Source: a virus
Lineage: Duplodnaviria; Caudoviricetes
Direction: 5' to 3' (one strand)
Length of the DNA: 58,956 nt
IMG/VR virus record: IMGVR_UViG_3300034073_000667
Coordinates: 1-58,956 of that record
Shown here: piece by piece, positions 156 to 57,355 of the stretch
How positions within the stretch are numbered: the stretch's first letter is position 1
Layout: each line of letters opens with the position of its first letter
Made by a program: the position numbers and the translations under genes
Notes under the pieces: model-generated
Told to the model about the DNA's origin: nothing
The model's input: only the letters and a program-made list of their open reading frames with translations
The model's database searches: none

Positions 156-713
156 ATGGCAATGATCACAAGAGCGGAAGCTGCTCGAGCACTTGGTGTC
201 ACCAAAGAAGCCGTCTATGCAGCGGTCAAGACAGGGCGTCTAACCACCAAAACAGGCGTCGATGGTCGGATCCTTGTCAATTCCGAGACAATGAGGGATG
301 AATGGGCCCGAAACACCCAAAAGCGAGTGGGGATCGGCCCTAAGCCACCTGGCCCGGGTGCTGAGCGACCAGTTTTGCGACCTCTTTCAGAGCGTCAAGC
401 ACCGAGGGATCGACTGGGTCGGACGGAGGAAGGGATTCCCGAATATGACGAATCTCGAGCCAGAACAGAGCACCTAAAGGCCGAGCTGCTTGAGCTGGAA
501 CGCAAGCAAAAAGAAGGATTACTGGTAAAAGCAGAGGAAATCGAGGCAAAATGGATAGAAATTGTGACATTAGCACGAACAAAAATCTTAGGCATTCCAA
601 CAAAGGCAAAACAGCGTATTCCCGACCTCGATACGGACGCGATCACTGTTTTAGATGACATCGTTCGAGAAACGCTTGAAGATCTGGCCGCAGAAGGCGA
701 GGAGGAGGACTGA
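156..713 (+). CDS. terS: Terminase small subunit, lambda Nu1-like (block A)
   Basis: N-terminal winged-HTH (ITRAEAARALGVTKEAV) and C-terminal coiled coil (KAELLELERKQKEGLLV); TGATG overlap with the terminase large subunit. Confidence 0.85.
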   Translation: MAMITRAEAARALGVTKEAVYAAVKTGRLTTKTGVDGRILVNSETMRDEWARNTQKRVGIGPKPPGPGAERPVLRPLSERQAPRDRLGRTEEGIPEYDESRARTEHLKAELLELERKQKEGLLVKAEEIEAKWIEIVTLARTKILGIPTKAKQRIPDLDTDAITVLDDIVRETLEDLAAEGEEED

Positions 714-2566
714 TGGCTTCGATCGAATCAGTTGCGTGTTCGGCGCTTCGAGCGTTCAAGCCACCAGAGAAGCTGTCGCTGAGCGAGTGGGCGGATCGGT
801 ACGCCTACTTGAGCGTGGAGAGCAGCGCTGAGGGCGGCCGGTGGCGGACGCTGCCGTATCAGCGGGGGATCATGGACGCAATCACCGATCCCAAAATCGA
901 GCAGATAACGCTAATGAAATCTGCTCGCGTTGGCTACAGCAAAATCTTAAACCACACGATTGCTTTTCACATTCACCAGGACCCTTGTCCGATCATGTTG
1001 GTGCAGCCAACGATCGAAGACGCGCAGGGCTATTCGAAAGAGGAAATCGCGCCGATGCTGCGGGACACGCCATGCCTGCGCGGCCTGGTGAGCGAGGCGA
1101 AGGCGAAGGACGGGGCAAACACGATCCTGCAGAAGCAGTTCCCCGGCGGAACGCTGAGCATGGTTGGCGCCAACAGCCCGCGTGGCTTCAGGCGCGTCAG
1201 CCGCCGGATTGTGCTGTTCGACGAGACCGACGGCTACCCGCAATCGGCCGGTGCTGAGGGCGACCAGATCAAGCTGGGCATCCGGCGGACGGAGTACTAC
1301 TGGAACAGGACGATCGTGGCCGGGTCGACGCCAACGATCAAGGACTTCAGCAGGATCGAGAAGATGTTCCTGCAGGGCGACCAGCGTCGCTATTTCGTCC
1401 CATGCCCGGATTGCGGGCACATGCAGTATTTGAAATGGACAAACATGCGCTGGACCGACGGCGATCCGTCAACTGCTGCGTATTGCTGCGAAGGCTGTGG
1501 GGTGATGATCCCTCATGCGAAGAAGCGATGGATGGTGGAGCGCGGCGAGTGGCGGCCAACTGCTCCGGGTAATGGAAAGCATGTGAGCTTTCATATTTGG
1601 GCAGCGTATTCGTACAGCCCTAATGCAACGTGGTCGAATCTAGTCGAGGAATTCCTTGACGCGAAGAACGACGCGGAGCAATTGAAAACGTTCGTAAATA
1701 CCGTTTTGGGCGAGGTTTGGGAGGACGAGTACGCAAGCAAGATCGGCGCAGAAGCCTTGGCCGAGCGTGCATCCCAGGAGGATTATGAGCATCTTGTGGT
1801 GCCATCGCAGGTTTTGGCGCTGACGATCGGCTGTGACGTGCAGGACGACCGATTGAGTCTGAGTGTGTGGGGCTGGGGGCGCGACGAGGAGGCGTGGCTT
1901 ATCGACAGGTCGAAGCTCTATGGGGACCCTGCTCGAGCAGAGGTGTGGCAGCAGCTTGATGAGGTGATGGCGAAACCGTTCCTCACCGAAGACGGCGTGG
2001 ACATGAAGATCAGCGTCTGCGCGATCGACTCCGGCGGCCACCACACCGCTGAGGTGTATTCCTACGCCCGGGAGCGGATGGCGAATGGTGTGATCGCGAT
2101 CAAGGGCATGAGCACCAAAGGCAAACCGCCGCTGGGCAAGCCGTCGAAGGTGGACCTGAACCGCAAGGGCCAGGTGGTGAAGAAGGGCGCCCAGGTGTTC
2201 CCGGTCGGATCGGACACGGTGAAGTCACTGCTGTTCGGCAGGCTTAAGCATAATGAAAAAGGTGCAGGTTACTTGCATTTTTATCCGACTGTTGGAACAG
2301 AGTACTTCGAGGAGCTGACTGCGGAGAAACAGGTTCTGCGATACAAGAACGGGTATCCGCAGCGTGTGTGGATGAAGAAGAGCAGTGCTCGAAACGAGGC
2401 GCTTGACGAGCTCGTTTATGCGTACTCTGCATTGCACCGGTTGTACCAGCTCTACGACAGGCGCACGATCTGGGATCAGTTCGAGCGTGTGGTCAGGCCG
2501 ATCGAGGGCGAGCCGGTGATTGCGCCTGCCCGGAAGAGCCGCAAGGCGTTCAATGTTTTAGGTTGA
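713..2566 (+). CDS. terL: Terminase large subunit, lambda gpA family (block A)
   Basis: gpA-type Walker A KSARVGYS, Walker B VLFDE, GSTP motif, CxxC pairs, nuclease DVQ..DSGG..RNEALD. Confidence 0.95.
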   Translation: MASIESVACSALRAFKPPEKLSLSEWADRYAYLSVESSAEGGRWRTLPYQRGIMDAITDPKIEQITLMKSARVGYSKILNHTIAFHIHQDPCPIMLVQPTIEDAQGYSKEEIAPMLRDTPCLRGLVSEAKAKDGANTILQKQFPGGTLSMVGANSPRGFRRVSRRIVLFDETDGYPQSAGAEGDQIKLGIRRTEYYWNRTIVAGSTPTIKDFSRIEKMFLQGDQRRYFVPCPDCGHMQYLKWTNMRWTDGDPSTAAYCCEGCGVMIPHAKKRWMVERGEWRPTAPGNGKHVSFHIWAAYSYSPNATWSNLVEEFLDAKNDAEQLKTFVNTVLGEVWEDEYASKIGAEALAERASQEDYEHLVVPSQVLALTIGCDVQDDRLSLSVWGWGRDEEAWLIDRSKLYGDPARAEVWQQLDEVMAKPFLTEDGVDMKISVCAIDSGGHHTAEVYSYARERMANGVIAIKGMSTKGKPPLGKPSKVDLNRKGQVVKKGAQVFPVGSDTVKSLLFGRLKHNEKGAGYLHFYPTVGTEYFEELTAEKQVLRYKNGYPQRVWMKKSSARNEALDELVYAYSALHRLYQLYDRRTIWDQFERVVRPIEGEPVIAPARKSRKAFNVLG

Positions 2567-2599
2567 TAGGGCTAGACTTACGCAAAATCCAGCCTGGCA

Positions 2600-3148
2600 A
2601 TGGCATTTCCATCCGAAATACGCGCTGGAGACGCCGTTGAATGGACGGATGATCTTGCGCCGACTGCAGATAGCCTGTCGTATTACCTTAGAACAAACGC
2701 TGCAAGTGGCGCGACGGCATCGGGAACGCTGAGCTCTGGGATCTGGTCGTTCACGCTGAGTTCTGCGACCACGACTGCATTCACCAGCGGCCAGTGGTAC
2801 TACCAGGCTGTTGCTGTCACCACTGGTGCGCCGACCACAGTGCGCACTGGACAATTCACTGTTCTGCCGTCTCTTGTTTATAGCGGTTCTGCTACTGCTG
2901 TCGATCTTCGCAGTCAGGCCGAAATTGATCTGGCGAATGTCGAAGCAGCAATTCGTGCTCTGGCAGAAGGTGCGCAAGAATATCGAATCGGCACCGCATC
3001 AGGCGGCCGAATGGTCAAGCGTGCTGAGCTGTCCCAGCTGATTCAGTGGCGCGATCGGCTTAAGGCTGACGTGGCGCGGGAACAGCTCGCGCAGAACGTG
3101 GCCAATGGCAAAGGCGATGGTCGGTCGCTTTACATCCGCTTCCACTGA
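2600..3148 (+). CDS. Head-tail adaptor (gpW-like C-terminus with extra N-terminal beta domain)
   Basis: Lies between terL and portal; C-terminal QEYRIG..R..KRAELSQLIQWRDRLKA resembles gpW. Confidence 0.65.
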   Translation: MAFPSEIRAGDAVEWTDDLAPTADSLSYYLRTNAASGATASGTLSSGIWSFTLSSATTTAFTSGQWYYQAVAVTTGAPTTVRTGQFTVLPSLVYSGSATAVDLRSQAEIDLANVEAAIRALAEGAQEYRIGTASGGRMVKRAELSQLIQWRDRLKADVAREQLAQNVANGKGDGRSLYIRFH

Positions 3149-3151
3149 TCA

Positions 3152-4720
3152 ATGGGACTCCGCACCTGGATTTTGAAACGCCTCGGCGGTCGTCGCATGT
3201 ACGACGCGGCCAGGTGGAATCGCTTCACGGCTGATTTCCTCGCTCCGAACACCAGCGCTGATGCTGAGCTGCGTGGCAGCCTGAAGGTGCTGCGGAATCG
3301 CAGCCGAGCGCTGGTCAGGGATAACCCCTACGCCCGGCAGGCGAAGCGGACGACCCAGGTCAACGTGATCGGTCCGCGTGGCATCCAGATGCAGCCGCAG
3401 ATCATGCGGCCCGATGGGCGGGAGAAAGACGAGCGCCGCAACGTGGCGATGTCGGCCGGATGGCGGCAATGGTGCCGGGCCGATAGCTGCGACGTCACCG
3501 GGAAGATGAGCTTCCACGCGATCGAGATGGCGATCGTGGGCTCACTGCCTGAATCGGGTGAGGTGGGCGTGCGGCTGGTGCGGCAGCGGATGGGCAAGAG
3601 CAGGGTGCCACTGGCGCTCGAACTGATCGAAGCGGATCAGATCGATGACGATTACACCGGCTTCAGCGACCGGCCAGGGCATTACTGGCGGATGGGCGTC
3701 GAGCTGAATGAGTGGGGGCGGCCGACGCGCTACGCCCTGCTGGTGAAGCACCCGGGGGACGCTGAGCTCGGCACTTACCTGAACAGGACGGAGAAGCATC
3801 TGTTTATTGATGCTGAAGACTTCATTCATATTTATATGCCTGATCGCATTGGGCAGACGAGGGGTGTTCCCTGGTTCGCGCCGGTGATCACCACGAGCTG
3901 GAACCTCGGCAAGTACGAAGAGGCTCACTGGACCCGGAAGCGAGTGCAGGCAAACAGCCTGGGCTGGATCCAGACTTCGGACCCCGAGGATTTCGGCAGC
4001 CGTGAAAGCGATGGCTCACCGGCGCTTGAAGGCGACAAGCGGCTGTGGAACACCGAGCCTGGCAGTTACAACTTCCTGCTGCCAGGGGAGACGGCGATCC
4101 CGCCTGACTTCGGTCCCGATGACAACCAGTACGAGAACGTGGTCAGGAACCTGGCCAGGCGATTTGCTGCTGGTTTCGGCTGTAGTTACGAAACGTTAAG
4201 CAAGGATTTCAGTGAGTCGAATTACAGCAGCAGCCGGCTGAGCATCCTCGAAGACCGTGATCACTGGCGCGTGATCCAGTCGATGCTGATCCAGCAGTTC
4301 CACCAGCGCGTGTTCGAGGAGTGGCTGATGGCTGCCGCCCTCACCGACTTGCCGATGCCGATGTTCTCGGATGTGTGGACCAGGCCGGAGCGGTACAACG
4401 CGCCGCATTGGCAGGCCCGGGCATGGAGCTGGGTGGATCCGGCGAAGGAGATGAAGGCGCTCGAGATGGCGCGTGCACTGCAGCTTCAGACGCACGCGGA
4501 GCAAATCATGGAATACACCGGTAACGATTTCATGGAAACCGTTACTACGATTGCAAAAGAGAATGAAATCAAGGAGGAGCTCGGGCTGATGGCCGCAACT
4601 CCCGTGCCGGCGCCCGAGCCCGAGCCTCCGGTCAGCGATCCGTTGATCGATGATCTGGGCCAGCCGGTGCGGCTACGGTCTGATCTGTCCAACCTTGCTC
4701 GCGCACAGAAAGATGGCTGA
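3152..4720 (+). CDS. Portal protein, lambda gpB family (block A)
   Basis: LRNRSRALVRDNPYA, GVELNEWGRP, QTRGVPWFAP, SNYSSSRL and WVDPAKE motifs. Confidence 0.95.
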   Translation: MGLRTWILKRLGGRRMYDAARWNRFTADFLAPNTSADAELRGSLKVLRNRSRALVRDNPYARQAKRTTQVNVIGPRGIQMQPQIMRPDGREKDERRNVAMSAGWRQWCRADSCDVTGKMSFHAIEMAIVGSLPESGEVGVRLVRQRMGKSRVPLALELIEADQIDDDYTGFSDRPGHYWRMGVELNEWGRPTRYALLVKHPGDAELGTYLNRTEKHLFIDAEDFIHIYMPDRIGQTRGVPWFAPVITTSWNLGKYEEAHWTRKRVQANSLGWIQTSDPEDFGSRESDGSPALEGDKRLWNTEPGSYNFLLPGETAIPPDFGPDDNQYENVVRNLARRFAAGFGCSYETLSKDFSESNYSSSRLSILEDRDHWRVIQSMLIQQFHQRVFEEWLMAAALTDLPMPMFSDVWTRPERYNAPHWQARAWSWVDPAKEMKALEMARALQLQTHAEQIMEYTGNDFMETVTTIAKENEIKEELGLMAATPVPAPEPEPPVSDPLIDDLGQPVRLRSDLSNLARAQKDG

Positions 4721-7469
4721 GGTCAACGGGGTCGAGATCGACCTGATGCCCACCGAGGGCATGCGCGAGGAGGCTGAGCGCTATCAGGCGTGGAAAGAAG
4801 AGGGCCGCGATGGTGGCACGGATGTGGCCGCCACCCGGGCCCGGCAGATCCTGAGCGGTGACGAGCTCAGCGCCGACACCGTGATCACCATGTCGGCATG
4901 GTTCGCCCGGCACGAGGTGGACAAGCAGGGCCAGGGGTTCAGTCCTGATGAGGATGGCTATCCCTCGCCAGGTCGCGTGGCTTGGGCCGCCTGGGGCGGT
5001 GATGCAGGTAAAAGGTGGAGTGATGCGAAGGCCGATAGCATCAAGGCAGCACAAGAACGCTCCATGGAACTTCGCGCCGCTCCCGACGAACTGAAAGAGG
5101 GAGATTTTGTCAGTTGGAACTCGAGCGGCGGTCGCGCTCGTGGGCGAATCGAACACATCATGCGCGAAGGCACTCTTGGCGTGCCTGACAGCGAATTCAG
5201 CATCGAGGCCACCGAAGAGGACCCGGCCGCGCTGATTCGGATCTACCGGGATGGTGAGCCGACTGAGGTGATGGTGGGCCACCGATTCAGCACGTTGACC
5301 AAGATCCAGCCGATTGATGGCGAGGAAGGTCGTCCCTACCCGAACGAGCACGCCGCTCGGCTGCTGGACCCGGGCATGTTTGAGCGGTTCCGCCGGGTGA
5401 ATGACGACCTTGGCGCAGGCGTTGATGCGATTTATGGCATCAATGAAGACGAACCGGTGCGACTGCAGGCAATTCGATTCGACGCCTCTCGCTTTAGCGT
5501 GTCAGAGGCAAGGGAGTGGTTGGATGACAACGACTACCAGCCGATCGAATTTGAGGAGGCCACCGGGGAGCGTGTCATGAAACTTGATCTGAAGCGGATC
5601 AACAAGGAGGGCCTGAAGCGCGAGGTCGCCCAGGGCATGCGTGTCGAGGAGAAGGCCGACGATCGGCTGACCTTCTCGTTCAGCTCCGAAGCTCCGGTGG
5701 AGCGCTGGTGGGGGCGTGAGGTGCTGGTGCACGACGCTGAGTCGATGGACCTGAGCCGCATGAATGACGGCGGCGCGTGGCTGTGGAACCACAATCGCGA
5801 CGTGGTGCTGGGCGTGGCCGAGAGGGCTTGGCTGGGCGACGATCGCCGGCTTTACGCGACCGTGATGTGGAGTCCTAACACGATGGAGAAGGGCACCGAG
5901 GAGTACAAGCGCCGCCGCGACATCGAAGCAGGAATCGTTCGCAATGTGTCTTTTGCGTACGAAATTGCAGATGTTCGCGAATCGTCAAACGGCGACTTTC
6001 TCGTTACAAAATGGAATGTACTTGAAGTATCATCTGTGAGCGTTCCGGCTGATCAATCGGTTGGCCTCGGACGTGCCCTTGATGTTGTAGAAGCTGCTGA
6101 CGTTATGCTTGACCACGAGCAGTCCGCCGAGCGCGGTACTGAAAAACAACCTGTGCCCTCAACAATGGAACAATCCATCGACATCAAAGAGGTGCAATCC
6201 GCCGCTCGGGCTGCTGAGCGTGATCGGGTCGCCACCATTCGCGCTATGTGCGAGCAGCATCAGGTCGGCGCTGAGCTGGCTGACAAGCTGATCAACGACG
6301 ACGCTTCTGTCGATCAGGCTCGCGAGGCCGTCCTGACCCAACTCGGCCGCAGCCGCAAGGAGTTCCAGGGCCGCATTCACGACGACGGCGCTGCTGCCAT
6401 CGGCCTGACCCAGCAAGAGGTCAAGCGCTACAGCCTGATGAACGTGATCCGTCACCTGGCTGACCCCACCGACCGCTCCGCTCGTGAAGCTGCTGCTTTC
6501 GAGATCGAGTGCTCTAAGGCCGCCGAAGGCAAGCTCGGCCGCGCTGCCAAGGGCGTTGTGATGCCCTGGGATGTGCTGTCCGCTCCTGCTGTTCGCTCCC
6601 AGAACGTCGGCACCGCTACCGCTGGTGGCTACCTGGTCGACACCCAACTGCTGACCGGTTCGTTCATCGACCTGGTTCGCAACCGCTCCGCTCTGCTGGG
6701 CCTGAATGTCACCACCCTGACCGGCCTGGTCGGCAACGTGGACATCCCCAAGAAGACTGGCGCCACCACTGCCTACTGGGTGGGTGAGGACGTCGCCGTC
6801 ACCGAGAGCGCAATGACTCTGGGTCAGATCTCGATGACCCCCAAGTCGCTCGGCGGTTTCGTTGACATCACCCGTCGCCTGATGCAGCAGGCCTCGATGG
6901 ATGTTGAGGCCATGGTCCGCGCTGACCTGGCTGAGTCCATCGCCCTGGCGATCGACTACTCCGGCATCTACGGCCTGGGTGGCTCCTCCGCTCTGCTGGG
7001 CATCAAGAACATCACCGGTGTTGGCTCAGAGACCCTGGCCAGCAACGCTGATACCAACAAGGCCATCGACGGCACCACCTACTACTTCGGCACCTTCGCC
7101 GACTACGTCAACATGGAGACCACCGTGTCGGTGGCCAACCTGGACGTGGATTCGATGTTCTATGTGGGCAACGCTCACGTTCGCGGTGCTCTGAAGCAGA
7201 CCCTGCGCAACACCAACAGCGAGCGCTTCATCTGGGAGAACAACGAGGTCAACGGTTACGGCGCTCGCGTGTCGAACCAGCTGATCGGCTCGAACGTGAT
7301 CTTCGGCGACTTCAGCCAGGCCATCTTCGGCTTCTGGTCCGGCGTCGACATCACCGTCGATCCCTACAGCAACAGCACCAAGGGCACCACTCGCATCGTG
7401 GCCTTCCAGGATGTGGACTTCGGTGTTCGCAACCCCGGTGCTTTCGTGTTCGGCTCCGGCAACGCCTGA
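4713..7469 (+). CDS. Polyprotein: three small accessory domains + HK97-type prohead protease + major capsid protein (block A)
   Basis: Likely start is ATG 4713, overlapping the portal end; protease motifs FSSEAPVER, LWNHNRD, NVSFAY, EVSSVSVPAD; capsid motifs GGYLV, AYWVGE, IFGDFSQ, VDPYS. Confidence 0.9.
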   Translation: MAEVNGVEIDLMPTEGMREEAERYQAWKEEGRDGGTDVAATRARQILSGDELSADTVITMSAWFARHEVDKQGQGFSPDEDGYPSPGRVAWAAWGGDAGKRWSDAKADSIKAAQERSMELRAAPDELKEGDFVSWNSSGGRARGRIEHIMREGTLGVPDSEFSIEATEEDPAALIRIYRDGEPTEVMVGHRFSTLTKIQPIDGEEGRPYPNEHAARLLDPGMFERFRRVNDDLGAGVDAIYGINEDEPVRLQAIRFDASRFSVSEAREWLDDNDYQPIEFEEATGERVMKLDLKRINKEGLKREVAQGMRVEEKADDRLTFSFSSEAPVERWWGREVLVHDAESMDLSRMNDGGAWLWNHNRDVVLGVAERAWLGDDRRLYATVMWSPNTMEKGTEEYKRRRDIEAGIVRNVSFAYEIADVRESSNGDFLVTKWNVLEVSSVSVPADQSVGLGRALDVVEAADVMLDHEQSAERGTEKQPVPSTMEQSIDIKEVQSAARAAERDRVATIRAMCEQHQVGAELADKLINDDASVDQAREAVLTQLGRSRKEFQGRIHDDGAAAIGLTQQEVKRYSLMNVIRHLADPTDRSAREAAAFEIECSKAAEGKLGRAAKGVVMPWDVLSAPAVRSQNVGTATAGGYLVDTQLLTGSFIDLVRNRSALLGLNVTTLTGLVGNVDIPKKTGATTAYWVGEDVAVTESAMTLGQISMTPKSLGGFVDITRRLMQQASMDVEAMVRADLAESIALAIDYSGIYGLGGSSALLGIKNITGVGSETLASNADTNKAIDGTTYYFGTFADYVNMETTVSVANLDVDSMFYVGNAHVRGALKQTLRNTNSERFIWENNEVNGYGARVSNQLIGSNVIFGDFSQAIFGFWSGVDITVDPYSNSTKGTTRIVAFQDVDFGVRNPGAFVFGSGNA

Positions 7470-7696
7470 TGAGCTGGTTCAAGCTGACCACTGACGTGAT
7501 GGTTCGCGGCACCTCCCGGGCAACCGGTGAGGTGCTCGACCTCTCCGAGAGTGAAGGCCAGCTCTTGGTTGGCCTCAGTCGAGCTGTGCGCTGCGAGGCA
7601 CCTGCGCCTCCAGAGCCTGTTTGCCCCATGCCCGCACCAGAGGCGAAGAAGCCTACTGTGCGTCGCACCATCAAACCACTTTCCCAGGAGGACTGA
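7469..7696 (+). CDS. Small head-associated hypothetical protein
   Basis: Coupled (TGATG) to the capsid gene; GEVLDLSESEGQLLVGL-type small protein that commonly follows capsid genes. Confidence 0.6.
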   Translation: MSWFKLTTDVMVRGTSRATGEVLDLSESEGQLLVGLSRAVRCEAPAPPEPVCPMPAPEAKKPTVRRTIKPLSQED

Positions 7697-7699
7697 TCC

Positions 7700-8080
7700 A
7701 TGGCCCTGAGCCAACGCAATTTTGAAGCGCTGCAGCACTTCAGCGCTTATGCCCCCGCAACTGTGACGGCCACCGGCGCCGGCACCGGTGTGGATCTGAT
7801 GGGCTACGACGGCGACGTCGTGTTCGTGATGCAGGCAACCGCTGCTGGCGCTGATGCCGGCTTCTCGGTGCGCCTTGAGCACAGCGATGCGAGCGGCAGC
7901 GGCTACGAAGCCATCACCGGCGCAGCTTTCGACGACATCGAGAACGCTGCCTACTTGGATTCCGTGACCATCTCGAAGGACGATGTCAAGCGCTATGTGC
8001 GCGTAAACATCCACACCGAGACTGGCACCGCTAGCTCGATTATTTCGGTTACCGGTTTCGGCGCCAAGAAGTATCAGTGA
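7700..8080 (+). CDS. Putative capsid decoration/cement protein
   Basis: Beta-rich 126 aa (GVDL.GY..KRYVRV) after the capsid gene; GGAGG Shine-Dalgarno upstream. Confidence 0.6.
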   Translation: MALSQRNFEALQHFSAYAPATVTATGAGTGVDLMGYDGDVVFVMQATAAGADAGFSVRLEHSDASGSGYEAITGAAFDDIENAAYLDSVTISKDDVKRYVRVNIHTETGTASSIISVTGFGAKKYQ

Positions 8081-9547: not shown

Positions 9548-9557
9548 GGCGACTACC

Positions 9558-10605: not shown

Positions 10606-10628
10606 TTCGGCAGGCAGGCCAATTCAAG

Positions 10629-16569: not shown

Positions 16570-16575
16570 GGTATC

Positions 16576-48262: not shown

Positions 48263-48330
48263 TGCCTAAGTACACCGGACCTGCCAAGCCTCAAAAGCCC
48301 ATGCCCAAGAAAGGAGGCAAGAAGAAATGA
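48262..48330 (+). CDS. Lys/Pro-rich micropeptide (22 aa)
   Basis: [22 protein letters not shown], coupled by TGATG upstream and ATGA downstream. Confidence 0.45.
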   Translation: MPKYTGPAKPQKPMPKKGGKKK

Positions 48331-49004: not shown

Positions 49005-49053
49005 AACCGTAGGGCTGATACGATGGCAGCGTAATTAAGCCTGCGGCTTATCC

Positions 49054-49734
49054 ATGTCTGATGAAACACAAACCCAAGAGCCTGCGGCTACCGGGGGTGA
49101 CAATACCGAAGTGCTGCAGCGCAGCGTCGAGGCACTTGAGCGCAAAAATAAAGAATTGATTTCAGAGTTGCGTGCTGCCAAAAAGGCGCCAGCATTGCCT
49201 GATGGCGTTGATGTCAACGAGCTGCTTGAGTTCAAGCGCAACTACGAGCAGCAGCAGCTTGAATCACAAGGCAAGTACCAAGAGGCACGGCAAGCGCTAG
49301 AGCAGCAGTTCCGTGAGGCGACAACCGAGAAGGACCATCGCATTGCTGCCTTGGAAAGCCGCGTCCGTGAGCTGGAGCTGGTCACGCCTGCAGTGACTGC
49401 GTTGGCTGACATCGTGCATGACCCTGACCTGGTGCTAAAAACCAAGCTGAGCGCTGATCAGATCGAACGCGATGCAGACGGCACTGTTGTAGTTGTCGAT
49501 GGCTACCAGCGCACACCCGTCAGCGAGTGGGCAAAAACCCTGCCGGCATGGATGCAAAAGCAACCCAAGCCGCAGGGCAGTGGCGCACCATCAGCCGGTG
49601 CCAGCACTGGCGGCATTCCGGCAGGGATGGCCAACCCATTTAGCCGTGAATCATTCAATCTGACTGAACAAGCGCGACTGTTCCGTACAGACCGTGATTT
49701 GTATGATCGCATGAAGGCAGCAGCTAACCGTTAA
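49054..49734 (+). CDS. Capsid scaffolding protein (block B)
   Basis: Coiled coil, GSGA linker and C-terminal NPF..ES.NLTEQ..L..D; precedes the capsid gene. Confidence 0.8.
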   Translation: MSDETQTQEPAATGGDNTEVLQRSVEALERKNKELISELRAAKKAPALPDGVDVNELLEFKRNYEQQQLESQGKYQEARQALEQQFREATTEKDHRIAALESRVRELELVTPAVTALADIVHDPDLVLKTKLSADQIERDADGTVVVVDGYQRTPVSEWAKTLPAWMQKQPKPQGSGAPSAGASTGGIPAGMANPFSRESFNLTEQARLFRTDRDLYDRMKAAANR

Positions 49735-49805
49735 GCTGCCTGCAACCGGCTGCGCTGGTGCTTTGGGTTGCGCCCACACCGTAAACCATTCCCCCGAGAT
49801 GAATC

Positions 49806-50831
49806 ATGGCGACTCTTCGCTCTGACATCATCATCCCAGAGGTTTTTACGCCTTACGTCATCGAGCAAACCACGCAGCGTGATGCCTTCCTGGCTAGCGG
49901 TGTGGTCCAGCCGATGGCTGAGCTGAATGCTACTGAGGGTGGTGACTTTATCAACGTCCCTTTCTGGAAAGCAAACCTTTCCGGTGACTTCGAGGTGCTG
50001 ACCGACAGCAGCTCGCTGACCCCCGGCAAGATCACTGCTGACAAGCAAGTTGGCGTCATCCTGCACCGTGGCCGTGCCTTTGAGGCTCGTGACCTGGCAG
50101 CTCTCGCTGCTGGTGCCGATCCCATGGCCGCTATCGGCGCCAAGATCGCTGACTACGTTGCCAACCAGCGCCAAAAGGACCTGCTGTCCTGCTTGGCCGG
50201 TGTGTTCGGCGCCCTGGGCAACAACGCGACTGCTCCCTTTGTGGACCTGTCGATTGACGGCCTGAGCGCTGACACCCCCACCGTGCTGAGCCCCCGTCAC
50301 GTCGCTGAAGCCCGCAGCCTGCTGGGCGATCAAGGCGACAAGCTGACCGCCGTGTGCATGCACTCCAAGGTCTACTACGACCTGGTTGAGCGTCGTGCTA
50401 TCGATTATGTCAGCACCGCTGAGGCTCGTGGCACCACCACCACCCAGTCGGGCGGTTCGATGGTTGCTGCTTACGGCGGTGAAGTGAACGTGCCGACCTA
50501 CATGGGTCTGCGCGTGATCGTGTCTGACGATGTGCAGACCGACGGCAGCGGCTCGACTACTGAGTACGCCACCTACTTCTTCACCCAGGGCGCTGTCGCT
50601 TCCGGCGAACAGCTCGCAATGCAGACTGAAACCGACCGTGACATCCTCGCCAAGAGCGATGCCATGTCGATCGACCTGCACTACTGCTACCACCCTGTTG
50701 GTGCCAAGTGGGGCGTCACCACGGTCAACCCGACTCGCGCTCAACTGGAGACCATCACTAACTGGTCGAAGGTGTACGAGACCAAGAACATTGGCATCGT
50801 GCGCGCCACCAACACCTCTAACTTCGATTGA
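49806..50831 (+). CDS. Major capsid protein (block B)
   Basis: SDIIIPEVF.PY, NVPFW, DPM.AIG..IADY, TYMGLRVIV.D and ETDRDIL motifs; strong codon bias. Confidence 0.9.
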   Translation: MATLRSDIIIPEVFTPYVIEQTTQRDAFLASGVVQPMAELNATEGGDFINVPFWKANLSGDFEVLTDSSSLTPGKITADKQVGVILHRGRAFEARDLAALAAGADPMAAIGAKIADYVANQRQKDLLSCLAGVFGALGNNATAPFVDLSIDGLSADTPTVLSPRHVAEARSLLGDQGDKLTAVCMHSKVYYDLVERRAIDYVSTAEARGTTTTQSGGSMVAAYGGEVNVPTYMGLRVIVSDDVQTDGSGSTTEYATYFFTQGAVASGEQLAMQTETDRDILAKSDAMSIDLHYCYHPVGAKWGVTTVNPTRAQLETITNWSKVYETKNIGIVRATNTSNFD

Positions 50832-50842
50832 GGTAACTAACC

Positions 50843-51262
50843 ATGGCTCAACCTTCCCAGTTTGAACTGTCCAACGAGCAGTACATCGTTGCTGACCACT
50901 ACATCGCCTCCTCGGTGGCTGATGTGCAGTTCTTTACCGCTCCGGTGAAGTGCGAAGTGGTCAGCATCCGCGAAGTGCATGCCGTTGCTGGTGATGACGC
51001 TGGCGCCGTTAGCGGCACCATCCGTCGTTGCCAAGGCACCGAAGCCGCCACTGCTGGCGACGACCTGCTCGGCACCACCAAAATCAACTTCAAGGGCACT
51101 GCTCTGACCGAGCAGAAGTTCGATGCTGCTGATTCTGGTGAGCTGACCAGCACCACCGCCAACCTGACCCTGGAGGCTGGCGATCGTCTGTCTCTGGACG
51201 TGACCGGCACCACCACCACCCTGGCTGGTGTGATCCTCAGCGTGCTGCTCAAGCGCGTCTGA
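50843..51262 (+). CDS. Putative capsid decoration protein
   Basis: Beta-rich ORF directly after the capsid gene with a GAGG SD and similar codon bias. Confidence 0.6.
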   Translation: MAQPSQFELSNEQYIVADHYIASSVADVQFFTAPVKCEVVSIREVHAVAGDDAGAVSGTIRRCQGTEAATAGDDLLGTTKINFKGTALTEQKFDAADSGELTSTTANLTLEAGDRLSLDVTGTTTTLAGVILSVLLKRV

Positions 51263-51373
51263 TGGGGCTGTTCGCTTTCCGGCGACTGCGTGAAAAGGAG
51301 GCTGCTGCTAACGCGGCGGCCTCTCTTTCTATGCCAGAGCCAACTCCTACACTGACCCCAGAGGTCCAGACCG

Positions 51374-51937
51374 ATGGCAGTAGTAATCGACGCAACAGTG
51401 GGCGGCGCAAACGCCAACAGCTACCTGACGCTGGCGGAAGCGACAGCGATTATTGATGGCTTTGTCGAGGACGCTGACGTTCAGCATTGGAACACAGGCA
51501 ACACTGATAGCCGCAACCGGGCGCTGTTTACTGCAACGCAACGGCTAGACCGCGAGCGGTTTCTTGGCGCACGGGCGACCGATACGCAGGCACTGCAGTG
51601 GCCACGTACGGGTGTGCGCAAGCCGGATACCTACATCAACACCTATGCGGTTGGGTTTCCGTTTCGCATCACGACGGACTACTTTACCGATACCGAGATT
51701 CCAACGCAGATCAAATACGCGCAGGCCGTGCTGGCGGTGTTCCTGCATAACAACACCAGCGCATTGGGGCTAAGCGGGCTTGAGGACTACAAAAACGTCA
51801 AAATCGGCAGCCTTGACGTGACGCCTAACCTTGGCTATGGCGCCGTTGGTGCGGATAAGGTGCCGCCGCTGATGGAGCGATACCTGATAGGGCTTAGAAT
51901 CAGTGGACCAGGCAACGTTTCCATCCGCAGGAGCTGA
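51374..51937 (+). CDS. Head-tail adaptor
   Basis: ANSYLT.AEA..ALF.AT..LD..QALQWPR..IP..IK.AQ pattern. Confidence 0.8.
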   Translation: MAVVIDATVGGANANSYLTLAEATAIIDGFVEDADVQHWNTGNTDSRNRALFTATQRLDRERFLGARATDTQALQWPRTGVRKPDTYINTYAVGFPFRITTDYFTDTEIPTQIKYAQAVLAVFLHNNTSALGLSGLEDYKNVKIGSLDVTPNLGYGAVGADKVPPLMERYLIGLRISGPGNVSIRRS

Positions 51938-51939
51938 TC

Positions 51940-52167
51940 ATGGGTTACGCCTACCCCGGCGCTGAGTTCATTGATGACACCTCAGCCCATACTGGGCGGT
52001 TTGGCAAGATCGTTGCCCTTGAGGATTCGGTGATCGCCAGCCTGACTGCACTGGACTACACCGGCAACACGCTGAGCGCCATTCCCTTTAATGCAAGCTG
52101 CGAAATGGAAGGCGTGTTTACCAGCATCACACTGACCAGCGGCACTGTCGTTGCTTACAAGCTCTGA
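51940..52167 (+). CDS. Small virion-associated hypothetical protein
   Basis: 75 aa ending in ITLTSGTVVAY; in the neck operon. Confidence 0.6.
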   Translation: MGYAYPGAEFIDDTSAHTGRFGKIVALEDSVIASLTALDYTGNTLSAIPFNASCEMEGVFTSITLTSGTVVAYKL

Positions 52168-52526
52168 TGGCACTGGCCTTATCGCTACAGAACGTTGCCA
52201 GCAAGATCATGGCAAAGCTGGGCGGTGAGGTCACGATCCGCCACATCACGCTGAGCAGCTACGACACCACAACCGGCGCTGTCACCGAGACCAATACGGA
52301 TGTTGGTGTCAGAGGCGTGCTGGAAGATGTCAATATCCGCGAGGTGAACGAACTGGTGCAGGCCGGCGATAAGCGGCTGATCGTGGCGGCAAAAGACCTG
52401 AACGGCACGGTGCCGACCACGGTTGATAAGGTGCTCATCAACAGCGTCGTGCATCAGATCATCCGCATCCAGACGATCGAGCAGGACAACACTGCGATTA
52501 CCTACGAGATGATCCTAAGAGCATGA
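52167..52526 (+). CDS. Head closure/stopper protein
   Basis: YD.TTG..VQAGDK.L pattern; synteny. Confidence 0.7.
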   Translation: MALALSLQNVASKIMAKLGGEVTIRHITLSSYDTTTGAVTETNTDVGVRGVLEDVNIREVNELVQAGDKRLIVAAKDLNGTVPTTVDKVLINSVVHQIIRIQTIEQDNTAITYEMILRA

Positions 52527-52927
52527 GTAACCTGCCCATCCGCGATATTGGCAACTACATGGGCGATCAGCTTGAGAAGTTGTTGCGTGTGACGGTGCTG
52601 GAGACTGATAGCAGGCTTAAGCAGCAAAGCCCGGTTGATACCGGCAGGTTCCGCTTTAGCTGGCAGATTGGCCAAAACGCAGCCGATGGCGTCCCTGCAC
52701 CTGAAGGCACCTACGGCGCAGGCATCACGCCGCCCAAAGGCAGCAATTACCAGCCAGGACAGGAGAAGCTAGGCAACTACTACAGCGTGCACAACAACCT
52801 GCCGTATGCTGAGTCCTTGGCGCAGGGCAGCAGCAAGCAGGCGCCGGCAGGATGGGTAGACCGCACAGCCCGTGAGATGCAAAACTTTGTCAACACGAAC
52901 TGGGAGCGCATCAGGAGGCAAGGCTGA
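52523..52927 (+). CDS. Tail completion protein (HK97 gp10-like)
   Basis: SPVDTGRFR.SW and NNLPYA..L..G.SKQAP.G motifs. Confidence 0.8.
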   Translation: MSNLPIRDIGNYMGDQLEKLLRVTVLETDSRLKQQSPVDTGRFRFSWQIGQNAADGVPAPEGTYGAGITPPKGSNYQPGQEKLGNYYSVHNNLPYAESLAQGSSKQAPAGWVDRTAREMQNFVNTNWERIRRQG

Positions 52928-53352
52928 TGGCTGCTGCAAACCTCAACACCATCCGTGCCACCATCGAGGCACGGCTTGCCACTGAGCTAGCGTTGTCGCC
53001 CGTGCTGCCGGTCGTGTTTCACAACCAGCCCTATGTACCGACGCCCAACAGCTCATGGGTGCAATGCCTGGTCAGCTTTGGGGCCAATGAGTACCTGACA
53101 CTTGGCGGGACCGCCGGCAGCAGCAACAGCATTATCGGCGTGGTAGCCATCAATATCTTCACGCCACTTGGCGTCGGACCTGGCGCTAACTTGACGATCG
53201 GTAAACGGATCAGGGACCTTTACAATAGGGTCATAGTCAGCGGTGTTCATTTTGACCCGCCGATCGGACCCGAGGTAGTGGCCGCGCCAGCACCGGAGGG
53301 TTTCTTCCAAACACAGGTCAGACTGACCTTTGAAACCTTCGAGGACCTCTAG
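52927..53352 (+). CDS. Tail terminator protein
   Basis: IE.RL..N....P...W..G...INIF.P.G.G; lies before the tail tube genes. Confidence 0.7.
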   Translation: MAAANLNTIRATIEARLATELALSPVLPVVFHNQPYVPTPNSSWVQCLVSFGANEYLTLGGTAGSSNSIIGVVAINIFTPLGVGPGANLTIGKRIRDLYNRVIVSGVHFDPPIGPEVVAAPAPEGFFQTQVRLTFETFEDL

Positions 53353-53354
53353 CC

Positions 53355-53771
53355 ATGGCTTTTTACCGAGGGCAGCAAGGCAGCGTCAAGTTTGATGATG
53401 CCGGTGCAACTGCCGCAGCAATCACCAGCACCCGTTCCTGGTCTCTGACCCTTGAGAAAGAGTCGCTGGACACCACCGCACTGGGCGCTACCTATCGTGC
53501 AAATGTCGGCGGCCTGATCAGCGGCAGCGGCACCTGCGAAGTGCTGTACACCGCCAGCAGTGCTGACGAGACCAACGTGTTCATCGAGCACGTCAACACC
53601 GTCAACGATGACGGCAGCGCCTTGTTTGAGCTGTACCTCGACACCACGGGCACCAAAAAGATCAGCTTTGATGGTGTGATCACCTCGGCCGAATACTCAG
53701 CTACCGTGGGTGAAATCGAAGTCATCACCCTGAACTTCGTTACCAACGGCACCGTCACCCTCGACATCTGA
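53355..53771 (+). CDS. Tail tube protein, paralog 1 (block B)
   Basis: WSL.....DTT..G.....GL.S.SG tube motif. Confidence 0.8.
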   Translation: MAFYRGQQGSVKFDDAGATAAAITSTRSWSLTLEKESLDTTALGATYRANVGGLISGSGTCEVLYTASSADETNVFIEHVNTVNDDGSALFELYLDTTGTKKISFDGVITSAEYSATVGEIEVITLNFVTNGTVTLDI

Positions 53772-53773
53772 TC

Positions 53774-54193
53774 ATGGCTTTTTATCGCGGGCAACAAGGC
53801 ACTGTCTTCTTTGATAAAGCTGGCAGTGGCGGCCTGTCTGAGATCGCTGCAGTGCGGTCTTGGACCATGACCGTTGAGAAGGAATCTCTTGATACTACAT
53901 CCCATGGCGCCACTTACCGCGCCAACGTGGGCGGGCTGATCAGCGGCACAGGCACCATTGAGGTGATGTACGACGCCCCCGGCGCTGGTGACAAGCTGGA
54001 CCTGATCAAAGATGCTAACCAGGCCACCGACGAGGCTGACGCAGCCGTTGAGCTGTATCTGGACGAAACCGGCGGCAAGAAGATCACCGGCACCATTGTG
54101 GTGACAAGTACTGAGTACTCCGCTACTGTTGGCGAGATCGAGATCATCACGATCAACTTCGTCTCCAGTGGAACCCTTACCCTGAGCATCTGA
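53774..54193 (+). CDS. Tail tube protein, paralog 2 (block B)
   Basis: Paralog of the previous gene (MAFYRGQQG, EKESLDTT, GATYRANVGGLISG, EYSATVGEIE). Confidence 0.8.
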   Translation: MAFYRGQQGTVFFDKAGSGGLSEIAAVRSWTMTVEKESLDTTSHGATYRANVGGLISGTGTIEVMYDAPGAGDKLDLIKDANQATDEADAAVELYLDETGGKKITGTIVVTSTEYSATVGEIEIITINFVSSGTLTLSI

Positions 54194-54549
54194 TGCCCGC
54201 CGCACAACGCCCGGTTGACCTGCTCGCCGGTGCATTTGACCTCAACCAGCGCCGAAAGTTCAGCATCAAGAATGATGCTGGTGATACGGTGCTGGACCTT
54301 TACTTTAAACCGATCACCCGCGCAGACCGCAAGCGGGCTAACAGCTTGGCAGGTTCTGATGAGGCACTGGAGATCAGCACCTACATGCTGTGCCAGATTG
54401 CCGAGTTGGAGAATGGCACCAAGGCATTCGCGCCGGCTGACGCAGCCAAACTGCAACGTGAGCTGCCTGAGCGCGTGCTGAACGAGCTGGAGCTGTTCCT
54501 GTTTGGTCTTGGCGACAGCAGCGGCATTGAGGAAGCAAAAAAAAGCTAG
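54193..54549 (+). CDS. Tail assembly chaperone gpG-like (block B)
   Basis: Between tube and tape measure; ends GCA AAA AAA AGC TAG. Confidence 0.75.
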   Translation: MPAAQRPVDLLAGAFDLNQRRKFSIKNDAGDTVLDLYFKPITRADRKRANSLAGSDEALEISTYMLCQIAELENGTKAFAPADAAKLQRELPERVLNELELFLFGLGDSSGIEEAKKS

Positions 54550-54719
54550 GCCAGGACAGCCTGCTCTTCTTTGAGTTCTTCCTGGCCACTGAGCTTGGTA
54601 TGACAGTCAGCCGGTTACGGACTGAGCTGACCGATGCTGAGTTTATCCATTTTGCAGCGTTTTACGAGATCAAAGGCGAGCGCGAGAAGGAAGCAATGGA
54701 CAAAGCCCGCCGCCGGTAA
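54537..54719 (+). CDS. Tail assembly chaperone gpT-like -1 frameshift extension (block B)
   Basis: The -1 frame from the A8 run encodes LGQDSLLFFEFFLATELGMTVSRLRTELTDAEFIHFAAFY... Confidence 0.75.
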   Translation, partial: KKKLGQDSLLFFEFFLATELGMTVSRLRTELTDAEFIHFAAFYEIKGEREKEAMDKARRR

Positions 54720-54728
54720 ACTGGTGCC

Positions 54729-57011
54729 ATGGCAGTCTCCAACGTTGAGCTAAGGGTTGACGCACGCAATGCGATTGCCGCGTTGCAGCGCGTTAACAGC
54801 GCATCAGCTCAGGCCGAGGCCGCTACTCAAAAGCTAAAGTCTGCCTTTGCAACTGCCGGGCAGGTCCAGTCTGTTTTTGGCGCAAAAGTAGCCAATACAG
54901 AATCAGCAATACGCAAACAGATCGCAGCTTTGCAGGATGTGCAAAGCCGGGTTCAACTTGGTGGCGCTCTTTATCAAAAGGCCGCAAAGCAGATTGAGGA
55001 ATACGAAGCTCGATTGCGGGGTGCCAGCCGAGCGACATCAGATGCCGCTACGGCTTTGACCGGGTTGGCCGCTGGAGCAGCAGCTTTCAATGCTCAGCGT
55101 ATCGCCACGGCGTTTATTACCGCCGCTAACGCTGCCGATGGCGCCGAACGACGCATCAAGCTGGTTAGCCAAGGATTTGACGATTACAGGCTTGTTCTGC
55201 AAGTGGCAGAGGGGGCTGCTAAACGGTTTGGTTTATCGCAGATTCAGGCGTCAACAGCTATCGCAGACGTTTATACAAGGCTGCGCCCGGTAGGTTTTCA
55301 ACTCAATGAAATCAACGCGATTTATGAAGGTTTCAATACGGTAGTGAAGCTAAGCGGCGTTAGCGCTGAAGCTGCGAATGCTGCATTCTTGCAACTGTCG
55401 CAGGGTCTTGGTAGTGGCACTTTACAGGGTGATGAGCTGAGATCAGTTCTTGAGCAGATGCCTGCTATTGCTCAGGCAATTGCCAAGGAGATGGATATTA
55501 ATGTTGGCAGCATTAAGAAGTTTGGCTCGGAAGGAAAGATTACCGCTGAGGTTATTGTTAGAGCGCTTGATCGGGTGCGCACCGAAGGCGCCGCCAAATT
55601 AGCGCAAGCATTGGACACGCCCCAGCAAAGAGTCATTGATCTTCAGAATGCTTTTGAAGATTTCAAGGTTGAAGTAGGTGGCGCGGTGGCGCCGATTGTG
55701 ATTGCCTCAATTAAAGAAATTACAAAGGCACTTCAAGAAGCCACCAAGTTCACAGTGGATCTAAAAGCTGGTTTCATGGTGATGGGTGATGCGTTTGGTG
55801 GCATCAACCTAGGCATCGGATCAATGAATGAGGGATTGCTGGGTACTATTCTGCGACTAAATGAAATTGGCAGAAATAAAGGCTTGATAGCGCTGATGGA
55901 TATAATGACGCTTGGCGGCGCATCAACACTGGGCGGCATTGCCAGGCTTGGTAAGAAGCGTCGCGCAGGCGAGGGGTATGCAGCACCAGCAGGACCCGAA
56001 ATGCCAATTCGGCTTTCAATGCAAGGCCGGGCACTGGGCGGCGGCGGCGCTGCTAGCAAAGGCGCAGGAAACAAGGCGGCTCGTGAAGCCGCAGGTGGTG
56101 GTGGCGGCAAAACGCCCAAGACCAAGCAAGCCAAAGAAATTAAAGACATCACTGCGCAAGAGTTAGAGCTGCGGTTGCGGCTTGGCATTGCGCAGCAGAC
56201 ACAAAACAAACAACAAGATGCCTATTACACCAAGCAGCTCGCGTTGCTTGAGATTTCAAAGCAAGAGATCGGACCTAATAAGCGCAGAGCTCAGATCATG
56301 GCGGCTGTTGTTGAATATGCCACAACGCTTAAAGAGATTAACGAAGCCGAAGCAAAAGTCACACTGCCGACGATCGTTGAGCGGATTGCCGACATGGCCG
56401 CAGGTTACAGCAAAGCGCTTGACTTCACTGTTCAGCTAACGGAGCAGCAAAAGCAGCAAAAGGCATTAGCTGATGGCCTTGCCGGCACTATTGGCGAAGG
56501 GCTGGCGTCGTCCTTTAACGCATTGATCCAAGGCAGCGAGGACTTTGGCACTAGCTTGCGGCGCATTGCCTCTGGCGTGCTGATTGACATTGCCAACCAA
56601 CTGCTGCGGGTGTTCGTCATCCAAAAGGCAATCAACGCCCTTAGCGGATTGTTTGGCGGTGTGACTGGCGGCGGCGGCGGCTTTGCGCCTGGCGTTGGAT
56701 TTAACCCCAATGTGTTCTCCATGCCATCACTGCTTGGACGCGCCAAGGGCGGCAGCGTCATGGCAGGCCAGCCTTATCTAGTTGGCGAACGTGGTCCTGA
56801 GCTGTTTATGCCAGGCCGCAGTGGCGGCATTGCACCGACCGGCAGCTTTGGCGGTGCCGTTAGCGTGGTGGTCAACGTAGACGCAGGCGGCACCAGCGTG
56901 GAAGGTAACGAGCCGAATGCCAATCAGCTCGGTAGGATCGTCGGTGCTGCAGTGCAGGCTGAGATCGTCAAGATGCAACGTCCCGGCGGCCTGCTCGCCA
57001 ATACCCGCTAA
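54729..57011 (+). CDS. Tail tape measure protein (block B, 760 aa)
   Basis: QLSQGLGSG.LQGDELRSVLEQMP tape-measure domain; C-terminal YLVGERGPELF. Confidence 0.9.
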   Translation: MAVSNVELRVDARNAIAALQRVNSASAQAEAATQKLKSAFATAGQVQSVFGAKVANTESAIRKQIAALQDVQSRVQLGGALYQKAAKQIEEYEARLRGASRATSDAATALTGLAAGAAAFNAQRIATAFITAANAADGAERRIKLVSQGFDDYRLVLQVAEGAAKRFGLSQIQASTAIADVYTRLRPVGFQLNEINAIYEGFNTVVKLSGVSAEAANAAFLQLSQGLGSGTLQGDELRSVLEQMPAIAQAIAKEMDINVGSIKKFGSEGKITAEVIVRALDRVRTEGAAKLAQALDTPQQRVIDLQNAFEDFKVEVGGAVAPIVIASIKEITKALQEATKFTVDLKAGFMVMGDAFGGINLGIGSMNEGLLGTILRLNEIGRNKGLIALMDIMTLGGASTLGGIARLGKKRRAGEGYAAPAGPEMPIRLSMQGRALGGGGAASKGAGNKAAREAAGGGGGKTPKTKQAKEIKDITAQELELRLRLGIAQQTQNKQQDAYYTKQLALLEISKQEIGPNKRRAQIMAAVVEYATTLKEINEAEAKVTLPTIVERIADMAAGYSKALDFTVQLTEQQKQQKALADGLAGTIGEGLASSFNALIQGSEDFGTSLRRIASGVLIDIANQLLRVFVIQKAINALSGLFGGVTGGGGGFAPGVGFNPNVFSMPSLLGRAKGGSVMAGQPYLVGERGPELFMPGRSGGIAPTGSFGGAVSVVVNVDAGGTSVEGNEPNANQLGRIVGAAVQAEIVKMQRPGGLLANTR

Positions 57012-57355
57012 TGGCTACCTTTCCCGCGATCAGTCCTACCTATGGCGCCGAGAAGCGCAGCGCCCCGAAGCGGCGTGTGGTGCAGTTTGGCGATGGCTAC
57101 GAGCAACGATTGACCTATGGACTGAACCAGAATCCAAAAGAGTGGTCATTGACCTGGAACAACATCACCGAGGCCAACGCGGACACCATCGAGACCTTCC
57201 TTGATGCCCGTGCTGCTGATGCGGCTGCATTTGACTGGACACCACCAGATGAGGCAACCGCTTACAAGTGGGTCTGTGATAGCTGGAGCAAGTCCATTCC
57301 GTACAACGGCAGGGCGATAATTAATGCCACCTTCCGCCAAGTGTTCGAGCCCTGA
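57011..57355 (+). CDS. Minor tail protein M, copy B
   Basis: FGDGYEQR..GLNQNPK.W.L and FDWTPP motifs. Confidence 0.9.
   Translation: MATFPAISPTYGAEKRSAPKRRVVQFGDGYEQRLTYGLNQNPKEWSLTWNNITEANADTIETFLDARAADAAAFDWTPPDEATAYKWVCDSWSKSIPYNGRAIINATFRQVFEP

Follow-up and report, generated by a model that had tools for sequence, protein, structure and literature searches.

Whether one tailed virus can carry two complete and unrelated sets of virion genes is the question raised by IMG/VR record IMGVR_UViG_3300034073_000667 (Duplodnaviria; Caudoviricetes), the entire 58,956 nucleotides (nt) of which were analyzed here and are referred to as the window. The window holds two blocks of head, neck and tail-tube genes, block A (156–15341) and block B (42931–57011), each of which leads into genes for a lambda-like tail tip, and between them lies a single pair of tip genes I and J followed by fiber, lysis and replication genes. 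The record is classed as 'linear' and is rated 100% complete by CheckV; its G+C content is 53–62%, it has 0 tRNA genes, and it is ~1.4 times as long as its relatives. A first-pass annotation, made from the letters of the sequence, had offered three accounts of this arrangement: that two co-occurring phages share an exchanged tip module, that block A is a satellite or an alternative morphogenesis allele using the same tip, or that one genome makes two types of virion. A single genome with two building plans would be remarkable. The evidence points to an assembly path, and we consider it highly probable that the record runs through two co-occurring siphoviruses, for the purposes of discussion phage A and phage B, and is not one virus with two building plans.

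Two copies of the tip genes and a repeat at the contig end

All on the plus strand, block A is followed by M (15341–15676; Phage_min_tail, 4e-29), L (15676–16569; Phage_tail_L, 4e-51), an HNH endonuclease gene (16576–17244; phrog_374, 1e-65, and phrog_3377, 1e-55, without a match in the Pfam scan) and K (17241–17954; Prok-JAB plus NlpC/P60). Block B is followed on the same strand by its own M (57011–57355), L (57355–58248) and K (58255–58956, the contig end), each recognized by Pfam and with no HNH gene before K. We refer to the two copies as M(A), M(B) and so forth. When 16 block-A proteins were compared with 21 block-B proteins by blastp (E ≤ 0.01), only four pairs emerged: the C-termini of the tape-measure proteins (35% over 324 amino acids, aa), M (47%), L (11 differences in 297 residues) and K (2 differences in 234 residues). 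The first-pass annotation had described the blocks as lacking any recognizable likeness from terminase to tube, with L about 96% identical and K almost identical, and this description holds. At the DNA level the likeness is confined to 15249–16579 with 56919–58258 (84%) and 17241–17942 with 58255–58956 (97.7%); L itself is 93% identical, and the HNH gene between L and K is found in block A only. Because the 16 mismatches between the K copies are mostly silent (14 of them), the two K genes are distinct copies on which purifying selection acts, rather than a single sequence that entered the assembly two times.

The end of the record bears directly on how it arose. The 127 nt at 17816–17942 recur exactly at 58830–58956, the end of the contig; the final mismatch between K(A) and K(B) lies at 17815, the two are identical from 17816 to the contig end, and the record stops 12 nt short of the site that matches the K(A) stop codon. 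Circular contigs made by SPAdes repeat their final k bases. The exact terminal repeat of 127 nt is like that of such contigs, although here the repeat is of an internal site and the record is classed as 'linear'. Recurrence of an internal site indicates that the contig is a path that re-entered a node of the de Bruijn graph that it had already used, and since that site lies inside the contig and not at its start, the path has a tail that leads into a cycle and is no plain circle. The contig therefore reads as a "tadpole," in which an A arm (1–17815) leads into a B cycle (17816–58829) of 41,014 bp. The JGI metagenome workflow uses metaSPAdes with k = 33, 55, 77, 99 and 127, the largest of which equals the length of the repeat, and this workflow presumably assembled the record.

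We propose that the assembler passed from phage A into shared sequence, went once around phage B, and halted when it met the 127-mer of 17816–17942 for the second time. Near-identical tip cassettes, with L and K as similar as stated above and J essentially identical, would have let A and B join. As the record ends inside K(B), the single I-J set, which the first-pass annotation had correctly counted in the window, is a property of where the contig stops and not of a virus.

Depth of the two forms in public runs

The first-pass annotation had suggested comparing sequencing depth along the record, and this was done through Logan contigs of four runs (X1–X4) of one study, aligned to 6000–25999 at 90% likeness. 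These runs contain 55–94% of the sampled words of 12000–21999; in runs X5–X20 the share of the query is small (0.09–0.20). Zero-mismatch contigs of block A have a depth of 104–109 in X1, 27–28 in X2, and about 3 in each of X3 and X4. They include an 8744-nt contig at 7208–15951 with 0 mismatches (108.9 in X1, 28.2 in X2) and the HNH-bearing contig at 16401–17270 (104.3 and 27.8), and in X3 and X4 the block-A contigs are short only. The B form of L-K, which skips the HNH gene, has a depth of 302–394, 91–106, 11–19 and 15 in X1 to X4, and the HNH-less joint from 16562 to 17241, with 13 other letters between, is present at 301.9, 90.6, 18.6 and 14.9. These B-form contigs bear the differences of the window's B copy, and one of them (record 25 of X4, 4214 nt) extends from K(B) across L(B) and covers another 2.7 kb upstream of it. 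J, matched with 0–1 mismatch, has a depth of 395–429, 90–108, 14 and 14, which in X1 is approximately the sum of A and B. In every run, then, the depth of the B form is 3–5 times that of block A and not equal to it, and the coexistence of both forms at such unequal depths in all four runs favors the proposal of two co-occurring phages.

Several points weigh against this reading. In X2 the depth of J (90–108) is not above that of the B form (91–106), so the sum of A and B fails there. The A:B ratio is similar (~0.2–0.3) in all four runs, a constancy that independent phages do not need, and the runs come from one study. The Logan depth is a rough measure, one mean k-mer depth per contig and not mapped reads, and for block B proper (42.9–57 kb) the depth is estimated from the L(B)-K(B) contigs, which run into it. 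Furthermore, the place where phage A leaves the shared path falls in a broad interval, between ~22.1 and 27.3 kb.

The roughly constant A:B ratio, the placement of both blocks on a single contig and the CheckV rating would suit one real molecule with both programmes, be it a dual-virion genome, a cointegrate that arose by recombination in K or J, or tandem prophages. We regard this as very improbable. With the B form 3–5 times deeper, A could be present on no more than a minority of B molecules. Records 25 and 26 of X4 run from K(B) into I and the same J, so two copies of J would be needed on such a molecule. The terminal repeat of 127 nt is as expected from a graph cycle. A host flank is absent, and no integrase was found among the 46 open reading frames (ORFs) of the window that were scanned. 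A capsid sized for about 40–48 kb is unable to hold 59 kb or more. Finally, the relatives are 33–42 kb with one terminase each: among the six IMG/VR records of this length with a K relative of at least 81% (G006, G009, G010, G011, G012 and G013), none carries both terminase types. This outcome answers the suggestion of the first-pass annotation to search databases for each block alone, and together with the internal repeat at the contig end and the unequal depths it speaks against its dual-virion account.

Ownership of the sequence beyond K

If two phages share this path, it is necessary to consider where their common sequence begins and ends. I (17941–18591; tail assembly protein, phrog_32, 1e-48) and J (18588–22322; central tip protein, FNIII-A_GpJ, 1e-40, Phage-tail_3 and Hint) lie on the plus strand. 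Logan contigs of X1–X3 break at 17964 and at 18388–18403. In X4, which is B-dominated, a contig of 4261 nt (depth 14.3) has 13 mismatches in 17935–18254 within I, does not fit at 18255–18387, and then enters J with 1 mismatch. The window's I is 95% identical to that of G011, a cos-type record with the HNH gene, and 74–75% identical to those of G006, G009 and G010, in a comparison where many I matches among relatives fell below the 60% coverage cut. The stretch of ~17965–18388 is probably a two-allele bubble in which the window's I allele belongs to phage A, and the sequence truly common to A and B starts near 18390, J included. The first-pass annotation's single I gene is therefore correct for the window, with the amendment that its first two thirds appear to be phage A's allele and not shared.

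Downstream of J, the middle region (22346–42934) encodes, by Pfam matches, a fiber with an S74 chaperone domain, a lysozyme/M15 endolysin, a sigma factor, a dCTP deaminase, RecT, an exonuclease, two helicases (one of them methylase-fused), a primase and DnaN. The window and the B-type record G006 are collinear from L via K, I, J, lysis and early genes to the capsid, with identities of 67–97% at the amino acid level in the middle region, 97% in the primase, 94% in the block-B large terminase and 100% in the capsid; DnaN is also collinear. G009 (41.6 kb) is a circle of B-type order at lower identity, and the middle region is collinear with the cultured phage S-H1 as well. The right arms of A-type relatives (G014, G011 and L086) compare with the middle region at 31–51% or without a match, except for the lysis gene lys at 84%. 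Specifically, G014 (25.9 kb) matches the window at 84% in lys and at 32–48% in the dCTP deaminase, exonuclease, helicase and primase, and the right arm of G011 (26.5–38.8 kb) matches it in one short patch only. As B-type records follow the middle region while A-type right arms diverge from it, we assign its sequence from ~27.3 kb onward to phage B and place the right arm of phage A outside the window.

The left boundary of phage A can be located from the same relatives. G014 ends at the point that corresponds to position 1 of the window and is 89% identical to the upstream part of L086, and L086 bridges that point, joining a G014-like arm to A-type small and large terminase genes (TerS and TerL) 95% identical to the window's. 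The 4.4 kb upstream in L086 are matched neither in the window nor in S-H1 or S-CBS3; two of their ORFs have no PHROG match and the third belongs to phrog_1617 (unknown function). Independent contigs 90–95% identical to block A begin within 9 nt of position 1 (L087, L088 and L090 at −3, L089 at +9), and TerL lies 500–900 nt from a contig end in 61 of the 80 TerL(A)-type loci. The shared contig starts, the end of G014 and the bridge in L086 together identify position 1 as a physical end of the cos type, so that 1–155 (plus strand), upstream of the small terminase and where contig ends pile up, would be the left end of phage A. Phage A is accordingly predicted to package from cos, a prediction that the gpA ATPase and nuclease domains, the lambda-family portal and the fixed end all suggest.

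The join of the A tail to a J of this kind is not an artifact: over positions 10860–22790 the A-type contig L008 and the window are collinear at 87%, which makes that link genuine, and the unsupported A link lies beyond J, at ~22.1–27.3 kb. In X1 the depth of zero-mismatch contigs falls after J to 329 and 274, as compared with 395–429 in J. At 22675–25999 the Logan contigs pile up to a depth of 2600–3300 in X1, with many joints and loose ends, an indication that the fiber and the region downstream of it hold segments common to many other abundant phages in these runs.

It is also worth considering that A and B might be the same phage over ~18.4–42.6 kb, with J and the lysis, early and replication genes in common, and differ only in the module for head and tail shaft; block A together with the middle region would in that case form a real genome. 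The collinearity of L008 extends through J and resumes at the lysis gene (82% at the nucleotide level), lys of G014 is as close as given above, the phage S-CBS3, with A-like heads, has a helicase-methylase 86% identical to that at 35904–38183 and is 81% identical in nucleotides over parts of 26.4–38.1 kb, and the contig is unbroken for 41 kb. Such an alternative allele is nonetheless quite improbable in view of the right arm of L086 and G014, whose last 4.4 kb are unmatched and whose primase, helicase and exonuclease are only 32–43% identical, of the lone matching patch in G011, and of the fall in depth after J. Still less credible, indeed extremely improbable, is that block A represents a satellite, or some defective element, relying on phage B for its tip. 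In each of the four runs block A is the less abundant of the two, and within the window it has no lysis or replication genes of its own; however, it comes with separate copies of M, L and K and with an I allele of its own, and its relatives (L008, G014, L086 and G011) run into their own J, fiber, lysis, helicase and primase genes and end at a cos site. These relatives are full phages with a right arm of their own, different from the window's, which disfavors both forms of the first-pass annotation's second account.

Two co-occurring phages would then have the following outlines. Phage A would be a cos-type phage whose left arm carries heads, a long tail, M, L, the HNH gene, K and its own I allele, with its right arm outside the window; we estimate its complete genome at ~45–48 kb. 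Phage B would be a circle of ~41 kb, with the 41,014-bp period, in the order K-I-J-fiber-lysis-early genes-primase-DnaN-terminase-heads-short tail-M-L. It has a Terminase_6 large terminase, a DUF4055 portal and a Mu-F-like protein, and its genome closes as a circle in the graph; its packaging mode is probably headful.

The tip cassette behind different tail shafts

The biology underlying this assembly path is a horizontal exchange of a lambda-like L-K-I-J cassette between phages with unlike tail shafts, and its traces can be followed across the database. Among 597 IMG/VR pattern matches, 590 encode a K relative, and the counts that follow are for the best 80 of these 590 loci. An A-type M (at least 75% identical to M(A)) is present in 17 loci, 16 of which have an L at least 90% identical to the window's; a B-type M (at least 75% to M(B)) is present in 27, with such an L in 22; several groups of other M types account for 25, with such an L in 12; and in the remaining 11, where the locus shows no M, L was not counted. 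The type of tube tracks the type of M wherever it is visible. In 10 of 11 representatives, DNA identity rises from ~45–80% in M to 78–97% in the first 60-nt bin of L and then stays at ~90%, the exception being the A-type L025, whose own M is 80–97% identical; a smaller conserved patch lies at the end of the tape measure. The L-K-J cassette is therefore ~90% identical over at least four types of M and tail shaft, with the break at the boundary of M and L, and its occurrence on independent contigs behind A-type, B-type and other shafts agrees with the first-pass annotation's first account, in which co-occurring phages share a tip module.

As M and the C-terminus of the tape measure vary with the tube, the exchanged unit begins at L. 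We infer from this pattern that M may be the adaptor between tube and tip: M and the end of the tape measure would stay matched to each shaft, and the break would fall at the gene boundary of M and L. The first-pass annotation had concluded that one tip docks on two very different tubes, which stands in substance, with the qualification that M and the tape-measure C-terminus change along with the tube. The sharp and recurrent break helps to judge which parts of a tail are interchangeable, and the window offers a clear natural case of a host-range cassette moving between short- and long-tailed phages with different packaging. Together with this break, two mobile-looking inserts, the HNH gene and a Hint domain in J, are the notable features of the cassette.

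The HNH gene is present in 6 of the 80 loci, 3 behind an A-type M, 3 behind other M types, and none of the 27 with a B-type M. In 5 of these loci the match extends to the first base of K, and in L073 it stops 24 nt short of that gene. Two marks of a free-standing homing endonuclease are thus present, namely membership of the HNH nuclease family and a sporadic occurrence, at a fixed site, among close relatives. An HNH-driven spread of the cassette was considered and rejected. In 56 sequences (54 of the 80 loci plus the window's A and B copies), carriers of the gene have a mean mutual identity of 0.885 at the end of L and 0.900 at the start of K, as compared with 0.879 and 0.904 to sequences without it, and random groups reach the observed values in 1250 and 1264 of 2000 draws, respectively; the flanks of carriers are no more alike than those of non-carriers, in what is a weak test with only 6 carriers. 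There is accordingly no sign in these flanks of the HNH gene driving the exchange or of co-conversion by it.

One could go further and suppose that L-K-I-J moves as a unit among at least four unrelated shaft lineages and two packaging types of these freshwater siphoviruses by a dedicated process, for example one promoted by the HNH or Hint element, with M as a universal adaptor that fits this tip to any tube. It seems to us unlikely that such a process lies behind the break; it would have to fix the boundary of M and L always, beyond mere selection among random recombinants.

The Hint domain lies at the start of J (18588–19040). It is an intein-like segment of ~140 aa that extends from a Cys near residue 13 to a ..VHN near residue 143, has Ala and not Cys, Ser or Thr at the +1 position, and is flanked by a duplicated nine-residue motif. 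The matches (Hint, 1e-7; PT-HINT, 8e-6; Intein_splicing, 4e-4) are near or below the Pfam cut-offs. The J proteins of L008, L038 and L006 contain the insert, whereas those of L025, L054 and L058 lack it, and it resembles a mobile element, perhaps a self-cleaving one, within a protein of the tail tip.

L of the window also has an N-terminal extension of ~90 aa (15676–15950) ahead of Phage_tail_L, with a weak match to CBM_5_12 (E 0.0013, below the Pfam cut-off), and 7 of the 11 differences between L(A) and L(B) fall within the first 54 residues of this extension.

Relation to known phages

It is informative to compare the two phages with cultured relatives and with the lambda tip. The window has all five families of the lambda tip in lambda order: Phage_min_tail (M), Phage_tail_L (L), JAB with NlpC/P60 (K), phrog_32 (I), and FNIII-A_GpJ with Phage-tail_3 (J). 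Unlike lambda's, its L bears the N-terminal extra segment, an HNH gene stands between L and K in phage A, J starts with a Hint-like domain, and the cassette follows two types of tube, Phage_tube_2 (311 aa) and Phage_tail_2 (two of ~139 aa).

Block A shares its layout of gpA-type TerL, head-tail joining protein, lambda portal, protease-capsid fusion and ~310-aa tube with the Synechococcus siphoviruses S-CBS3 and S-LBS1, being 34–50% identical in amino acids to S-CBS3 (33 kb) and having a short nucleotide match to S-LBS1 in TerL. In contrast to the window, the tail tip of S-CBS3 has no L, K or J matches and its tape measure is much shorter. According to one account, S-LBS1, S-CBS1 and S-CBS3 form a cluster with a lambda-like TerL and genomes of 30–35 kb (PMC6157547). 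Block B and the early region of the window resemble two other Synechococcus siphoviruses, S-H1 (39 kb) and KBS-S-2A (in the range of 39–41 kb). S-H1 is collinear with the window from ~32 to 57 kb, through early genes, primase, DnaN, terminase, portal and tape measure, with identities of 80% in the capsid, 65–73% in the tubes and 64% in M; it differs in its L and K relatives, which reach only 43–48% identity, and in J, for which it gave no match. Megablast against cultured phages gave short or distant matches only. The nearest cultured relatives infect Synechococcus, which suggests that A and B are tailed phages of the cyanobacterial type.

Modular mosaicism of tailed phages is the subject of Botstein's module theory, and such mosaicism was reportedly described by Hendrix et al. 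in 1999, a work cited in PMC6157547. The exchange seen here is ordinary mosaicism and nothing different in kind: gene blocks of different history meet at the borders of genes, and host-range genes pass between phages that are otherwise unlike. Particular to this case is that the break falls within the tail assembly cluster, between M and L, and recurs behind at least four M types.

Four records of 55–58 kb (G001–G004), with a TerL 78–83% identical to that of block A, were considered as further two-block genomes and rejected, as none has a relative of the block-B TerL; G003 alone among them has a K relative (48%), and they are different, larger phages. A further observation concerns positions 1–13400 of G005 (L251/L252), a record of 37.7 kb rated 100% complete. 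This record has a left arm of A type, with TerS through J and fiber, and a second, S-CBS3-like tail set follows directly, comprising a terminator, a 310-aa tube, a chaperone, a 625-aa tape measure, and tip proteins of 150 and 739 aa. Neither the replication genes nor the endolysin of the window found a match in G005, which is probably another composite contig. As the present record is rated 100% complete despite being ~1.4 times the length of its relatives, and as G005 appears similarly composite, catalogues of uncultivated viruses evidently contain such joins where co-occurring phages share a near-identical module.

Gene content of the two blocks

The first-pass annotation had described both blocks as complete and distinct, and matches to Pfam and PHROG confirm the gene content of each. 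In block A, all on the plus strand, a helix-turn-helix TerS (156–713) is followed by a gpA-type TerL (713–2566; GpA_ATPase, 8e-86, and GpA_nuclease, 2e-94), a lambda-family portal (3152–4720; Phage_portal_2, 4e-87), a protease-capsid fusion of 939 aa (4650–7469), the Phage_tube_2 tube (9670–10605) and a tape measure of 1325 aa (11364–15341); a head-tail joining protein, connectors, a tail terminator and a chaperone complete the block.

Block B, likewise on the plus strand and collinear with G006, G009 and S-H1, comprises the Terminase_6 TerL (42931–44283), the DUF4055 portal (45277–46722), the Mu-F-like protein (46939–48138), a scaffold (49054–49734), a Gp13-like capsid (49806–50831), connectors, the two Phage_tail_2 tubes of 138 and 139 aa (53355–54193) and a tape measure of 760 aa (54729–57011). 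Between TerL and portal lies a gene for an endonuclease VII-like nuclease (44198–45031; phrog_1035, 7e-17). It is 92% identical in G006 and without a match in G009 and S-H1, and on account of this distribution it may be another mobile endonuclease.

In the early region, the helicase-methylase at 35904–38183 is a fusion of 759 aa on the minus strand, and its relative in S-CBS3 is gp40. It has no match in the otherwise collinear B-type G006 and is, as judged by these matches, a separate mosaic insertion. Finally, the two adjacent tubes of block B are paralogues, 61% identical over 139 aa, and the pair occurs in S-H1 and G009 as well.

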